Assembly (NCBI GenBank): GCA_964583985.1
Contig: CAZOYD010000008.1
Coordinates: 1-64,000, forward strand
Reading direction: 5' to 3'
From: an uncultured archaeon
GTDB taxonomy: Archaea > Asgardarchaeota > Lokiarchaeia > Sigyniarchaeales > SOKP01
Length of the DNA: 64,000 nt
Shown here piece by piece: positions 42,596 through 46,302 of the stretch (position 1 is its first letter; each line of letters begins with the position of its first letter). The translations under genes were made by a program, and so were the position numbers. The notes under the pieces are model-generated. The model did no database searches and had not been told where the DNA came from. It worked only from the letters and a program-made list of their open reading frames with translations.

Positions 42596-43210
42596 CTACC
42601 AGATTGAAAAATCTTTTTCTTTTGAGAAATCCCTCTTTAAGGGTTTTCCCGTAATTAAGGTGAGGTATCTAATATATGCAGATTGTTCTGCGCCTGTTAC
42701 GTATTGTAACGCGTCTTCTAAAGTCATTCCTTTAGCAAAAATCCCATGACCACGTACTACTACAAAAGGATAATTTTTTAATATTTTTGGTACTTCAATT
42801 GAGGTATAATATGCTCCCGCGGGTATTTTTACATCAATAATCGGTATTTTTTTGTATAATGCAAAACCTTCGGCGTCAATACACGTTATTTCATCTTCGA
42901 TTAACGAAAGAGCTACACAATAAGGATTATGTGCATGAATTACTGCCATTGCATCTGTTTCTAAATAAATTGCTCGATGAACTCCAAGTTCAGTACTAGC
43001 AATAAGTGATCCAGAATCTTCTTCTTTTAAATCACAAATTACTAAATCCTCTGGCTCCAGATTACCAAGCATTGCTGCTCTTCTTTTTATAATAATCTTA
43101 CCACCTGACTTTATTGAAATATTACCAGAATGGCTAGTATTATATCCATGTCTAACTAAATGCTCTCCAATCTTCTTAAACATATTATAAATAGACTCGT
43201 CTATAATCAT
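42596..43210 (-). CDS. Class II (Zn) aldolase, FucA/adducin family; predicted rhamnulose-1-phosphate aldolase by context
   Basis: SGNIS, STELGVHRAIY, IHAH, RGHG. Last gene of the rhaA-aor operon. Confidence 0.85.
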   Translation of the reverse strand: MIIDESIYNMFKKIGEHLVRHGYNTSHSGNISIKSGGKIIIKRRAAMLGNLEPEDLVICDLKEEDSGSLIASTELGVHRAIYLETDAMAVIHAHNPYCVALSLIEDEITCIDAEGFALYKKIPIIDVKIPAGAYYTSIEVPKILKNYPFVVVRGHGIFAKGMTLEDALQYVTGAEQSAYIRYLTLITGKPLKRDFSKEKDFSIW

Positions 43211-43228
43211 GAGTTTCTCATATATTTT

Positions 43229-45022
43229 CTATAATTTAAAGTCAATTTCAAGATTTTTAATTAATTCCTTTTTAGGAACTCCTTCCTTATCCCAACCTCG
43301 TACAAAATAATATTGCTCTAACATGGATTCTAATGGTATTATATGACCCTTTGAAGCCCCTTCTTTTAGGGGTTCATTAAGAAACCTTGAAGGTAATGTA
43401 TCATCATTTTTTGTAAAACCTTCTCTAATGTTAAACAGTCTTTCTAAATTATATATACGTTCTCCTATTTGAGTTAACCTAATAACATCAAACTCAATAC
43501 CAGTAATAGCTTTTAAGAAACGTGCATAATAATCAAGCCCTAATGCCCAACCTGCGAATGTGCAAATAACCAAACTATCTTCAATTGCTTTCTGATTTTG
43601 TTTTAATACTAGCAAATCAGGTTTCCCTGCTGTTGTAAACCTATCAATTTTTTTTGGGGCGGCAAATATCTCTAAGGATGCCATATATCCAGTAAGATGA
43701 CATCCACCTCTATTGGAAGTGGCATATCCTAACGCATGCCCGATAGCACCTCTTGGATCATATGCGGGGAGTTCCAATCCTTTAACTTGCATAGCTATCT
43801 CTTCATTTTTATATCTCTTTGCTAATAATCTGGATCCTTCCCCAATTTGAGCTCCAATACCTTCTTTCTTAGCAATTTTTTCGACAATATTTTTTAGCAT
43901 AATTGTGTTACCAAATTTTAAAGAAAGATCGTTCAAGAACCCTTTTTCATTTAATTCCATTCCGCATGAGATACTACCACCGCAAGATATTGTATCAATT
44001 CCAAATTTATTGCATAAATAATTTGCCTGAGTTATCGTAATTAGGTCATATATACCTAAATTTGGACCAAGCGCCCAGACAGATTCATATTCTGGTCCTT
44101 TTCCCTGCATATCACCTGCTTTAGTTAATCTTCCGCATCTTATAGGGCAAGCATAACATCCTTCTCTCTCTTGTGTCAATTTCTTATTTATCTCTTCTCC
44201 ACTTACTAAGCTAGCTCTCTCATCAAAACCTTTTTGAAAATTATTAATAGGAAACATACCCAATATATTAATCACATTAACTAAAGCAGAAGTTCCAAAT
44301 TTCGGAAGTGAAGATCGAGTTATAGGAACCACTTTAATCTTATCTTGAGCGACTTCTACATACTTTTTCAACAATTCTTGATTATCAATATCAAATTTAG
44401 CATCACCACCTTTTACCACGATAGCTTTAAGGTTTTTAGACCCCATTACTGCTCCAACGCCTCCTCTTCCAAATGCTCTAGTTGCATCATTTATTATTGC
44501 TGCTATCTTAATTAAATTCTCACCTGCAGGGCCAATCATAAGGGAATTAATTTTATTACCTTCAATCTTTTTTAATTCTTCTAAAGTCTTCTCAGTGTCG
44601 TATCCCCATAATTTAGAACCATCCTTTAATTCTGGTCCTTTTCCACCTTCTATTAAAAGATATCCTGGCTCTTTCAATCCCCCCTGAATTAAAATACCAT
44701 CATACCCACATCTTTTCATTACAACGCCAAAGGATCCCCCTGAATTAGAAAAAAATATCCCATTGGTTAAGGGTGATTTTGTGACTAACGAAAAGCGTCC
44801 ATTTGTCGGAATTATAGTTCCTCCAAACGGTCCCGTTGTAAATATCAATAAATTCTTTGGATCTAAGGGATCAATATTAGCTGGAATTCTTTCCGATAAT
44901 AATTTAACGCCTATCCCCCTACCTCCAATAAAATTTTCTAATACCTCTTCCGATAATAAGATTTCACTAATTTTTTCTTGATCGAGGTTTATTTCAAGAA
45001 TTTTGTTATTCAATCCTTTCAT
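43229..45022 (-). CDS. aor: Aldehyde:ferredoxin oxidoreductase (W/Mo bis-pterin AOR family)
   Basis: FIGGRG, TKSPLT, IGPAGE, GRGGVGAVMGSKNLKA, CYACPIRC, GPEYE, PAYDPR, RGGCH, DSLVIC, ERLFN. Confidence 0.95.
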   Translation of the reverse strand: MKGLNNKILEINLDQEKISEILLSEEVLENFIGGRGIGVKLLSERIPANIDPLDPKNLLIFTTGPFGGTIIPTNGRFSLVTKSPLTNGIFFSNSGGSFGVVMKRCGYDGILIQGGLKEPGYLLIEGGKGPELKDGSKLWGYDTEKTLEELKKIEGNKINSLMIGPAGENLIKIAAIINDATRAFGRGGVGAVMGSKNLKAIVVKGGDAKFDIDNQELLKKYVEVAQDKIKVVPITRSSLPKFGTSALVNVINILGMFPINNFQKGFDERASLVSGEEINKKLTQEREGCYACPIRCGRLTKAGDMQGKGPEYESVWALGPNLGIYDLITITQANYLCNKFGIDTISCGGSISCGMELNEKGFLNDLSLKFGNTIMLKNIVEKIAKKEGIGAQIGEGSRLLAKRYKNEEIAMQVKGLELPAYDPRGAIGHALGYATSNRGGCHLTGYMASLEIFAAPKKIDRFTTAGKPDLLVLKQNQKAIEDSLVICTFAGWALGLDYYARFLKAITGIEFDVIRLTQIGERIYNLERLFNIREGFTKNDDTLPSRFLNEPLKEGASKGHIIPLESMLEQYYFVRGWDKEGVPKKELIKNLEIDFKL

Positions 45023-46302
45023 AAACTCGTCCTCTTCTTCAATACATCATTTTCATAATCCTCAACAATATGGAACCAATCTCTTCCAATGGGAACTTTA
45101 TGAATATAACAATAATAATCCCAAACTGAACCAAATGGAAGCGTTTTTAACTCCTCTAGAAAAGCTAAACGTTGAAAATATTTGTTATTTTCCTCATAAT
45201 TGAGTAAAAGTTCTCGAGGTTGTAGTAATGCATATAAAAAACTCTTTAATGTGGCTCTCGCTCCTATAACCCAAGCTGCTATCCGATTTATAGACGCATC
45301 AAAAAAATCCAACCCTATAAATATTTTGTCAAATGATTTTATTCGGATAACTTCTTCTGCAATCTGGATTAAATCGTCATTTAAAACAACAACATGGTCA
45401 CTATCCCAACGTAAACTTCTACTAATATGAAGTAAGATTCCTTTAACGAAAGGAACAATTGCTGAAATTTTATCAGCAATAGATTCAGTGGGATGGTAAT
45501 GCCCAGAATCGATAGTTAACATAAGGTTATTCTTCACAGCATAACTCAAATAAAATTCATGGCTTCCTACTACAAAAGCTTCACTTCCAATACCAAAAAG
45601 TTTTCCTTCTAATGAATCTTGAATATAACGAGAATCTAATTCTTGCTCCAAAATACGATCCAAAGAATCTTTTAATAATTCTCTGTAACCTATACGGTCA
45701 ACAGGAGTATCTTTTGAACCATCTGGTATCCAGATGTTATGGATTACTTTAATATTCAGTTGTTTCCCTATCTCTACACTGATTTCACGACACCTCATTA
45801 CATGGTCTATCCAAAAATTGCGGATTTCAGGATCTTTACTACTTAATGTGTATCCTGAATCTGCTTTAGGATGAGAAAATAGAGTAGAGTTGAAATCTAA
45901 TCCCAATTTCTCAATTTTTGCCCAGTCTATCCATGTTTGGAAGTGATTTGCATTAATTTCATTACGATCTACGAATTTATTAGCAAAATTCCCATAAATA
46001 GCATGTAGGTTAACTCTGTGATTTCCTGGTATAAGTGAAATTGCTTTTGAAAGGTCATTCTGAAGTTCCATAATAGTTCTTGCTTTTCCGGGATAACTTC
46101 CAGTTGCTATTATACCTCCTCCTGTTAATTGAGAATTGGGATGCTCAAATCCTCCTACATCATCTCCTTGCCAACAATGAATTGAAAGTGGAATATTCTC
46201 CATTTTTTCAATAACCAAGTCTGTATCAACTCCCAATTCAGCATATTTTACTTTAGCGATTTCATATGAATCTTCTGTTTGATTAGATTTCGTTATGATC
46301 AC
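45019..46302 (-). CDS. rhaA: L-rhamnose isomerase
   Basis: SIHCWQGDDVGGFE, TGSYPGKAR, NLHAIY, GLDFN, NIWIPDGSKD, E.KLFGIGSE, GHYHPTE, RWDSDHVV, GLDFFDASINR. Confidence 0.96.
   Translation of the reverse strand: MIITKSNQTEDSYEIAKVKYAELGVDTDLVIEKMENIPLSIHCWQGDDVGGFEHPNSQLTGGGIIATGSYPGKARTIMELQNDLSKAISLIPGNHRVNLHAIYGNFANKFVDRNEINANHFQTWIDWAKIEKLGLDFNSTLFSHPKADSGYTLSSKDPEIRNFWIDHVMRCREISVEIGKQLNIKVIHNIWIPDGSKDTPVDRIGYRELLKDSLDRILEQELDSRYIQDSLEGKLFGIGSEAFVVGSHEFYLSYAVKNNLMLTIDSGHYHPTESIADKISAIVPFVKGILLHISRSLRWDSDHVVVLNDDLIQIAEEVIRIKSFDKIFIGLDFFDASINRIAAWVIGARATLKSFLYALLQPRELLLNYEENNKYFQRLAFLEELKTLPFGSVWDYYCYIHKVPIGRDWFHIVEDYENDVLKKRTSL

Follow-up and report, generated by a model that had tools for sequence, protein, structure and literature searches.

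An aldehyde:ferredoxin oxidoreductase gene in the rhamnose locus of a lokiarchaeal genome and its proposed role in lactaldehyde oxidation

Background

In this work, we analysed a stretch of 64,000 nucleotides (hereafter the window) from an uncultured archaeon of the order Sigyniarchaeales (Asgardarchaeota, Lokiarchaeia), namely positions 1 to 64,000 of contig CAZOYD010000008.1 (contig C8) of assembly GCA_964583985.1. The genome amounts to 3.8 Mb in 138 contigs, the GC content of the window is about 33%, and its nearest homologues bear Lokiarchaeota or Promethearchaeota names. We focus on three adjoining genes, which encode an L-rhamnose isomerase (rhaA), a tungsten/molybdopterin-type aldehyde:ferredoxin oxidoreductase (aor, with AOR for the protein) and a small FucA-like class II (Zn) aldolase. 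With a probability of about two in three, we propose that they make up the central part of a phosphorylative pathway for L-rhamnose, in which AOR oxidises lactaldehyde, a toxic by-product, to lactate with ferredoxin, not NAD, as the electron acceptor. Comparative genomics supports a reading of this locus as a known pathway that would have acquired a non-orthologous, ferredoxin-linked lactaldehyde step and a non-RhaD aldolase.

The closest described pathways are RhaA-RhaB-RhaD and FucI-FucK-FucA of Escherichia coli. Rhamnose and fucose catabolism converge only on dihydroxyacetone phosphate (DHAP) and L-lactaldehyde, and for the lactaldehyde step a survey of rhamnose pathways names AldA, FucO/RhaO, RhaZ and the fused RhaEW, with ferredoxin and tungsten unmentioned (PMC3870299). 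The window locus is alike in isomerase family, in its rhamnulokinase-like FGGY kinase, in its class II Zn aldolase and in the expected products, DHAP and L-lactaldehyde. It differs in that its aldolase has 204 aa and is FucA-like rather than RhaD, that the host is an Asgard archaeon, and that a tungsten/pterin AOR with ferredoxin is proposed instead of NAD-linked AldA or NADH-linked FucO. In RhaEW (YuxG) of Bacillus subtilis and Chloroflexus aurantiacus, aldolase and lactaldehyde oxidation are also one genetic unit within rha loci, with L-lactate as the product, and aldolase turnover required the dehydrogenase activity, which provides a precedent for tight coupling (PMC3870299). However, RhaEW is one fused polypeptide with an NAD-dependent short-chain dehydrogenase domain, whereas the window contains two genes and an unrelated ferredoxin-linked metallo-pterin oxidiser. 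No dehydrogenase domain was detected by Pfam in the window AOR or aldolase, which are separate proteins and not a RhaEW-type fusion.

Lactaldehyde chemistry has precedent within the AOR family, since WOR1 of Eubacterium limosum oxidises lactaldehyde in vitro (PMC11725836) and since, in Desulfofundulus kuznetsovii, a route from 1,2-propanediol via lactaldehyde to lactate was deduced to operate in vivo with Adh1 and an adjacent AOR (PMC13541210). Furthermore, one sentence on metagenome-assembled genomes (MAGs) of Candidatus Lernaellota states that AORs could detoxify rhamnose-derived lactaldehyde (PMC9324843). An earlier note on this DNA, made from the sequence alone, knew of no description of such a step; this was too strong, as all three reports touch on it. 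Nevertheless, each of them differs from the case presented here. WOR1 is described as an electron-bifurcating enzyme that works with NAD as well as ferredoxin and detoxifies aldehydes on lactate, and unlike the window AOR it is linked neither to an aldolase nor to deoxy-hexoses (PMC11725836). The AOR of D. kuznetsovii is paired with an alcohol dehydrogenase and was deduced to reduce ferredoxin, with no link to a sugar-phosphate aldolase or deoxy-hexoses (PMC13541210), and the idea on Ca. Lernaellota was derived from gene presence, without evidence from gene pairs, clades or neighbourhoods (PMC9324843). In the literature searched, which largely excluded subscription journals, we found no account of a conserved AOR-aldolase pair or of its clade.

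Two further systems are relevant. FucA (MJ1418) of Methanocaldococcus jannaschii is a small archaeal aldolase which, together with the NAD-dependent aldehyde dehydrogenase CofA, provides lactate from lactaldehyde for the biosynthesis of F420. By comparison, the window aldolase scores 66 bits against the corresponding FucA_Meth model, far under its cutoff of 250. The AORs of Pyrococcus furiosus and Clostridium autoethanogenum are regarded as broad-range enzymes (amino-acid-derived aldehydes and acetate/acetaldehyde, respectively), and neither is known to be tied to an aldolase. In family, domain layout, and cluster and catalytic residues, both of these enzymes (structures 1aor and 9g7j; PMC12727526) agree with the window AOR.

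Results and discussion

The rhaA-aor-aldolase unit

All three genes are located on the reverse strand, in the order rhaA (45019..46302), aor (43229..45022) and aldolase (42596..43210). The order, the 4-nt overlap and the 18-nt gap read in the earlier note were confirmed to the base by the open reading frames (ORFs) and the junction sequences: ATGA at 45022-45019 is common to the rhaA stop and the aor start, and 18 nt separate the aor stop codon TAG (43231-43229) from the ATG of the aldolase gene (43210). RhaA, of 427 aa, matches PF06134 with 611 bits and is above both NCBIfam equivalog cutoffs (NF002203, 643 bits, cutoff 572; TIGR01748, 588.9 bits, cutoff 584.95). Its gene is present as a single copy in the genome; the listed start is a GTG without obvious ribosome-binding site, and the true start is perhaps some codons off. 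AOR, of 597 aa, contains AFOR_N (PF02730, 240 bits) and AFOR_C (PF01314, 447 bits), both full length, and the aldolase matches PF00596 (Aldolase_II) with 109 bits. On the same strand, a T-rich stretch (42545..42595) follows the aldolase stop codon, with runs of seven and five T read from the sequence at most 50 nt from the stop. It is a possible archaeal transcription stop ending the rhaA-aor-aldolase unit, whose genes are presumably co-transcribed.

Conservation of the aor-aldolase pair and phylogeny of AOR

We found six Loki loci via AOR, and in all of them rhaA was located directly upstream of aor. The order rhaA-aor-aldolase was seen in five, the contig of the sixth ending after aor, and the rhamnosidase and transporter genes switched sides among these loci. 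Of 300 sampled Asgard genomes, 15 contained rhaA; aor followed it directly in ten and within 2 kb in one more. Three of the remaining four possessed the pair elsewhere, once near a gene of glycoside hydrolase family 78 (GH78), so that the pair was present in 14 of the 15 genomes. Since the rhaA-aor arrangement recurs in rhaA-bearing Asgard genomes, it is not due to chance. Starting from the aldolase, AOR was encoded directly upstream in each of the 29 evaluable Asgard loci.

The pair is not confined to Asgard archaea. The next-best AOR relatives (58-65% identical), including those from Bacteroidota, had an aldolase of 204-205 aa encoded directly downstream. One such pair adjoined an FGGY kinase and a GntR regulator, and another (locus L009) was part of a polysaccharide-utilisation locus that also encodes two GH29 fucosidases and a GH95 enzyme. 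In a wider scan, 80 further AOR loci of 44-80% identity were collected, giving 91 loci in all at that stage. In 40 of these 91, from at least ten phyla, the next gene downstream on the strand of aor was that of the aldolase, and in many cases the stop and start codons overlapped. Carriers of the pair included Loki- and Helarchaeota, Thermoplasmata, Bathyarchaeota, Bacteroidales, Chloroflexota, Desulfotomaculaceae, Moorellaceae, Actinomycetota and Firestonebacteria, with Bacillota represented. Looking for aor beside rhaA or fucI had been suggested in the earlier note, and the survey indeed revealed the aor-aldolase pair recurring with rhaA, rhaB or rhaI and with fucI or fucosidase genes in distant phyla.

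Two observations concern individual loci. A gene of the histone-deacetylase family (L030, 11759-12526; L042, 11323-12090), oriented on the opposite strand, separates aor from the aldolase gene in Thermoplasmata; this is the sole break in the otherwise direct adjacency. Locus L006 (DATKTW010000070.1) is labelled 'Candidatus Nanopelagicaceae bacterium' (Actinomycetota), while its proteins are about 72-92% identical to those of the Loki rhamnose locus and its gene order is equal; it is probably mis-binned or mislabelled.

The family tree, also proposed in the earlier note, placed the window AOR in a clade nearly always trailed by the small class II aldolase. In the FastTree phylogeny, a single clade (support 99) held all 38 linked AORs among its 43 evaluable rows, and none of 49 evaluable AORs outside it was linked. 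With IQ-TREE (LG+G4), the corresponding clade of 50 rows (SH-aLRT 96) comprised 41 linked, five unlinked and four undeterminable AORs, and none of the 37 evaluable AORs outside was linked. Linked sequences of Loki archaea and Bacteroidota surround the window AOR in this clade. The AOR of a 'Thermococci' MAG (L052), whose GTDB class comprises five genomes, was considered as a stand-in for the AORs of P. furiosus and C. autoethanogenum, which are not among the sequences of the trees; it was rejected, as its similarity to 1aor does not exceed that of the window AOR.

Association with rhamnose and fucose genes

To compare gene neighbourhoods, flanking ORFs were clustered and near-identical loci dereplicated, which left 33 linked loci (32 public ones and the window) and 41 unlinked controls. 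Among the linked loci, a RhaB-like kinase was encoded in nine, RhaA in six, L-fucose isomerase in five, GH78 in four, GH29 fucosidase in three and a RhaI-like isomerase in two, and each of these was absent from all 41 unlinked loci. Overall, at least one deoxy-hexose gene (RhaA, RhaI-like, RhaB-like, FucI, GH78 or GH29) was located at most 10 kb away in 15/33 linked loci, as opposed to 0/41 unlinked ones. The 15 loci consist of 13 of the 32 public loci detected by BLAST, of L009 (GH29 twice and GH95, recognised by Pfam only) and of the window. In one Loki locus (L017/L116), rhaA, rhaB, the aor-aldolase pair, a GlcD-type FAD/Fe-S dehydrogenase gene and fucI occur together. As the pair stands beside both rhamnose and fucose genes and the two pathways share L-lactaldehyde, lactaldehyde appears to be the obvious substrate of AOR. 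At the genome level, a close aldolase orthologue was present in 15 of the 17 Asgard genomes with RhaA or true FucI and in 6 of the 283 others.

The following model is proposed. RhaA would convert L-rhamnose to L-rhamnulose, and the RhaB-like kinase, encoded 6.5 kb from the three genes, would phosphorylate the latter. The FucA-like Zn aldolase, taking the place of the absent RhaD, would split L-rhamnulose-1-phosphate into DHAP and L-lactaldehyde. AOR would then act as an L-lactaldehyde:ferredoxin oxidoreductase, a role proposed from genomic association, and would yield L-lactate while passing two electrons to ferredoxin. Reduced ferredoxin could be re-oxidised by the [NiFe] hydrogenases of the genome. 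The model regards the aor-aldolase pair as a two-gene module, both old and mobile, that was inserted into rhamnose and fucose loci of many anaerobes, where it may fill the role held elsewhere by AldA, FucO or fused RhaEW. The earlier note had suggested a hybrid pathway of this kind, with lactaldehyde converted to lactate via AOR and ferredoxin; gene neighbourhoods and the AOR tree now lend it support at the level of comparative genomics.

The AOR and aldolase proteins

The closest solved relatives of the window AOR are the AORs of P. furiosus (1aor, 551 bits) and C. autoethanogenum (9g7j, 529 bits). Because these scores far exceed those for other branches, namely FOR (1b25, 333 bits), WOR5 (229 bits), BamB (155 bits) and the GAPOR model (54 bits), the protein is, judged by sequence, an AOR in the strict sense. 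C289, C292, C296 and C487 (a CxxCxxxC motif and a distal Cys), E313 and H442 are invariant in the clade alignments and line up with the motifs of 1aor. We take the four Cys to be the [4Fe-4S] ligands, and E313 and H442 presumably correspond to the catalytic Glu313 and His448 of P. furiosus AOR. The cofactor is predicted to be a tungsten bis-pyranopterin and the acceptor to be ferredoxin, and oxidation of the aldehyde is the presumed direction. In a screen for residues conserved in at least 85% of sequences inside the linked clade and in at most 15% outside, just R501 separated the clade from other AORs.

The genome encodes 14 AORs. With its 13 paralogues the window AOR shares an identity of 38% or less, which indicates a separate orthologue group rather than a recent duplicate, and it is 45-65% identical to aldolase-linked AORs of other phyla. 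As for the paralogues, two of them lie 1.5-3.5 kb from genes for iron-type alcohol dehydrogenases (Fe-ADHs), i.e. on contigs C33 (AOR 10229-11395, Fe-ADH 14743-15249) and C77 (AOR 9967-11091, Fe-ADH 12514-13035), and resemble the published Adh1-AOR arrangement of D. kuznetsovii. Another one (contig C15, 29186-30334, reverse strand) contains an in-frame TAA within the family match and may be a pseudogene or an assembly error.

The aldolase is 91-92% identical among Loki genomes and thus better conserved than AOR (about 80%) or RhaA (about 72%). Its best NCBIfam model is PRK08660 'aldolase' (185 bits, cutoff 203), and it reaches no equivalog cutoff; apart from FucA_Meth (see Background), it scores 40 bits against TIGR01086 FucA (cutoff 400). 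It is not RhaD, with 22 bits against NF002963 (cutoff 170) and 204 aa compared with about 274 aa in RhaD, and the NCBIfam models detected no RhaD in the genome. We propose that the small FucA-like protein acts as an L-rhamnulose-1-phosphate aldolase and forms L-lactaldehyde and DHAP.

Proteins with the class II aldolase fold catalyse reactions of several types, and the window aldolase stays below every equivalog cutoff. It might therefore be an epimerase, a dehydratase, a decarboxylase of the fold or a non-catalytic partner of AOR, in which case the substrate of AOR would be another aldehyde. Against this, N30, S72, E74, H92, H94 and H155 are invariant across 24 aligned orthologues; we take H92, H94 and H155 to be the Zn ligands, E74 the catalytic Glu, and N30 and S72 parts of the phosphate site, by analogy with H92, H94, H155, E73 and N29 of E. 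coli FucA. Moreover, the nearest solved relative (Thermus thermophilus fuculose-1-phosphate aldolase, 2fk5) and the nearest curated ones are fuculose-1-phosphate aldolases, there is no other aldolase in the locus, and the two further class II aldolase genes of the genome stand in unrelated contexts. We thus consider a non-aldolase function very improbable and retain the assignment as an aldolase.

These two further genes, both on contig C1, were examined as candidates for the rhamnose aldolase and rejected on account of their contexts. Within region 50000-69999 of that contig (L092), they occupy 6408-7082 (reverse strand) and 14354-16081 (forward strand). The first has a xylose-isomerase-like TIM-barrel gene or the second has it as its neighbour. 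They may belong to a separate sugar or sugar-acid pathway. In another Asgard genome (G154, contig C8, 136435-137050; L138), the aldolase match is split into two overlapping segments (residues 1-148 and 139-204), suggesting a frameshift or a sequencing error.

Substrate range and other routes for lactaldehyde

Several observations weigh against lactaldehyde oxidation as the dedicated role of the pair. Of the 32 linked public loci, 18 had no rha or fuc gene in the DNA examined. Eleven Asgard genomes with distant pairs (aldolase 35-40% identical) have neither RhaA nor FucI, and five such pairs that were inspected have unrelated neighbours. The existence of pairs without deoxy-hexose genes means that the module is not exclusive to deoxy-hexoses. 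The Asgard genomes counted above are related and non-independent, so the counts are descriptive and their statistical strength is overstated. As for AOR, the residue screen revealed no sequence signature of lactaldehyde specificity, and the enzyme resembles the broad-range AORs of P. furiosus and C. autoethanogenum about as closely as it does remote members of its clade; since R501 alone sets the clade apart, a generic, broad-range specificity is likely. The aldolase resembles FucA rather than RhaD, and activity on L-rhamnulose-1-phosphate is assumed for it. Finally, the best-matching family of an aldehyde dehydrogenase (ALDH) encoded on contig C65 is the methanogen lactaldehyde dehydrogenase (435 bits, cutoff 650), and this ALDH or the five generic Fe-ADHs of the genome could handle lactaldehyde too.

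When the wider surroundings of eight pairs without rha or fuc genes in the stretch initially examined were inspected, no shared theme emerged among neighbours such as ZnuA, polyprenyl synthase, a ferredoxin-domain protein, radical SAM, a small GTPase, a methyltransferase and an EamA transporter. The remit of the aor-aldolase module may thus be wider than lactaldehyde. Taken further, the pair could be a general clean-up system for deoxy-ketose-1-phosphates, with AOR as a broad-range aldehyde scavenger, its place in rhamnose operons a secondary recruitment and lactaldehyde one of several substrates. An example would be a DHAP shunt for 5-deoxyribose or methylthioribose (radical-SAM and polyamine by-products), leading to acetaldehyde or methylthioacetaldehyde. 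More than half of the linked loci, those without a rha or fuc gene nearby, speak for this, as do the 11 Asgard genomes, the five inspected pairs and the near absence of clade-specific residues in AOR. In addition, one of the closer pairs without rha or fuc genes (L155) adjoins a radical-SAM gene, and the aldolase also scores against models of MtnB, ribulose-1-phosphate aldolase and M. jannaschii FucA. On the other hand, wherever a sugar context is present it is always rhamnose or fucose, and no MtnA, MtnK or MtnP-like gene was found beside the inspected pairs. In this window the context is plainly that of rhamnose, and here general clean-up overlaps with lactaldehyde oxidation. On balance, we regard a general clean-up function as unlikely.

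According to another explanation, lactaldehyde would mainly go to a conventional enzyme elsewhere, either an Fe-ADH forming 1,2-propanediol or the C65 ALDH forming lactate with NAD(P), and the AOR of the operon would have another or a back-up role, such as detoxification of stray aldehydes. AORs are known for broad specificity, the genome contains five Fe-ADH and two ALDH genes, and the best match of the C65 ALDH has been mentioned above. However, as the earlier note had remarked, the window lacks a FucO/RhaO reductase and AldA: none of the five Fe-ADH and none of the two Aldedh matches of the genome falls on contig C8. A dedicated reductase elsewhere, a possibility also raised there, could be one of the five Fe-ADHs, but they score only about 180-220 bits against FucO models with cutoffs of 523-537. 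Among all Fe-ADH and ALDH genes of the genome, NCBIfam recognised no FucO or AldA equivalog, and there seems to be no clear alternative candidate for the lactaldehyde step. Furthermore, a conventional enzyme elsewhere leaves the fixed adjacency of the AOR clade and the aldolase across phyla unexplained. We hold this explanation to be quite improbable and consider AOR the preferred candidate for the step.

Concerning the fate of electrons and lactate under the proposed AOR route, the genome contains two [NiFe]-hydrogenase large-subunit genes, while no [FeFe] hydrogenase was found in it; the former could serve as a sink for reduced ferredoxin. The genome also contains several FAD-oxidase genes and one LUD-domain gene, whose products might process lactate further. 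In two unrelated loci, L011 (12695-14455) and L116 (935-2653), a protein of 586 aa that combines a GlcD-type FAD oxidase with a 4Fe-4S dicluster domain is encoded 1.3-2.3 kb from the pair and is a candidate for a lactate-oxidising follow-on step.

A possible AOR-aldolase complex

Because of the fixed gene order and the overlapping genes, we predicted the structure of an AOR-aldolase complex. The prediction scored 0.53, with 0.01 for the best of three controls, and was rated as weak support. Of 80 solved complexes, 58 attained the mark applied, as did 2 of 110 mismatched pairs, yet at scores of 0.60 or less it was attained by just 7 of the 80 solved complexes and by both passing mismatches. The runs agreed in at least 97% of contacts, and the pLDDT (predicted local distance difference test) of the partner was at least 87. 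The aldolase ends in a near-invariant C-terminal Trp (W204 in the window, codon 42599-42601), which follows a conserved basic/aromatic tail (...EK.F..W) and could be an active-site lid or a docking point for AOR. Together with the strict gene order and the frequent stop/start overlap, this residue and the complex score provide indirect support, to be taken as a lead only. We may speculate that AOR and aldolase bind each other and that L-lactaldehyde, or some other reactive aldehyde, passes directly from the active site of the aldolase to the tungsten centre. Such a complex would be a two-protein, ferredoxin-linked counterpart of RhaEW, disseminated among archaeal and bacterial anaerobes by horizontal transfer. 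As a whole, this idea is tentative, and its chances are well below even.

Neighbouring genes in the window

The remaining genes of the rhamnose locus are located upstream of rhaA. A GH78 alpha-L-rhamnosidase (46329..49037, forward strand) is recognised by five Pfam rhamnosidase domains (Bac_rhamnosid6H, 344 bits), and its gene is kept beside rhaA-aor-aldolase in related Loki loci. The listed starts of the divergent rhaA and GH78 genes are just 26 nt apart (46303-46328), which means that either their promoters must overlap coding sequence or one of the starts is mis-called. The GH78 gene is followed by a DeoR-family gene (49107..49877, forward; HTH_DeoR and DeoRC), likely the local regulator, and by a carboxylesterase-family gene (49908..51407, reverse; PF00135, 411 bits) with orthologues in rhamnose loci L005, L012, L127 and L132. 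A GPH/MFS_2 glycoside-cation symporter (51484..52845, forward; PF13347, 171 bits) is a candidate importer of a rhamnoside or rhamnose; its orthologues (about 82% identical) adjoin the three genes in L001, L002, L005 and L006. The RhaB-like FGGY kinase (52871..54373, reverse; FGGY_N and FGGY_C) was not mentioned in the earlier note. It matches TIGR02627 rhamnulokinase over its full length with 490 bits (cutoff 528), compared with 156 bits for fuculokinase, and is probably a rhamnulokinase.

This gene set bears on the direction of the pathway. AORs are reversible, and that of C. autoethanogenum reduces acetate (PMC12727526), so the pair might run anabolically, with AOR reducing lactate or another acid and the aldolase condensing the aldehyde with DHAP into a deoxy-ketose phosphate; stand-alone pairs in genomes without deoxy-hexose catabolic genes would be in line with this. 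Nevertheless, the set of rhamnosidase, transporter, isomerase and kinase in the window is catabolic, and the pair also occurs in bacterial polysaccharide-utilisation loci with fucosidases. Anabolic operation is the least probable of the explanations considered here, and the catabolic direction is retained.

Downstream of the rhamnose block (56054-64000), the window encodes a cluster of cytoplasmic glycosidases (two GH4, one GH32 and one GH2) and a Gfo/Idh/MocA oxidoreductase. A ferritin-rubrerythrin fusion gene is located at 57494-58474.

Conclusions

Tungsten enzymes of the AOR family are abundant in anaerobes, and very few of them have been tied to a physiological substrate; for the aldolase-linked clade, L-lactaldehyde is now offered as a testable one. 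If the proposed role is true, it would represent a third finish to rhamnose and fucose catabolism, one that yields low-potential ferredoxin, and hence H2, instead of spending NADH on propanediol. The products predicted for Asgard archaea, Bacteroidales, Chloroflexota and others living on algal or plant polysaccharides would then shift from 1,2-propanediol to lactate or acetate and H2, and tungsten would be needed for growth on rhamnose or fucose. If AOR and aldolase indeed formed a complex, the linked AORs would be the first subfamily of AORs dedicated to a particular pathway. For Loki-type archaea, ferredoxin-linked oxidation of lactaldehyde would fit the H2-releasing syntrophic lifestyle that has been proposed for them.

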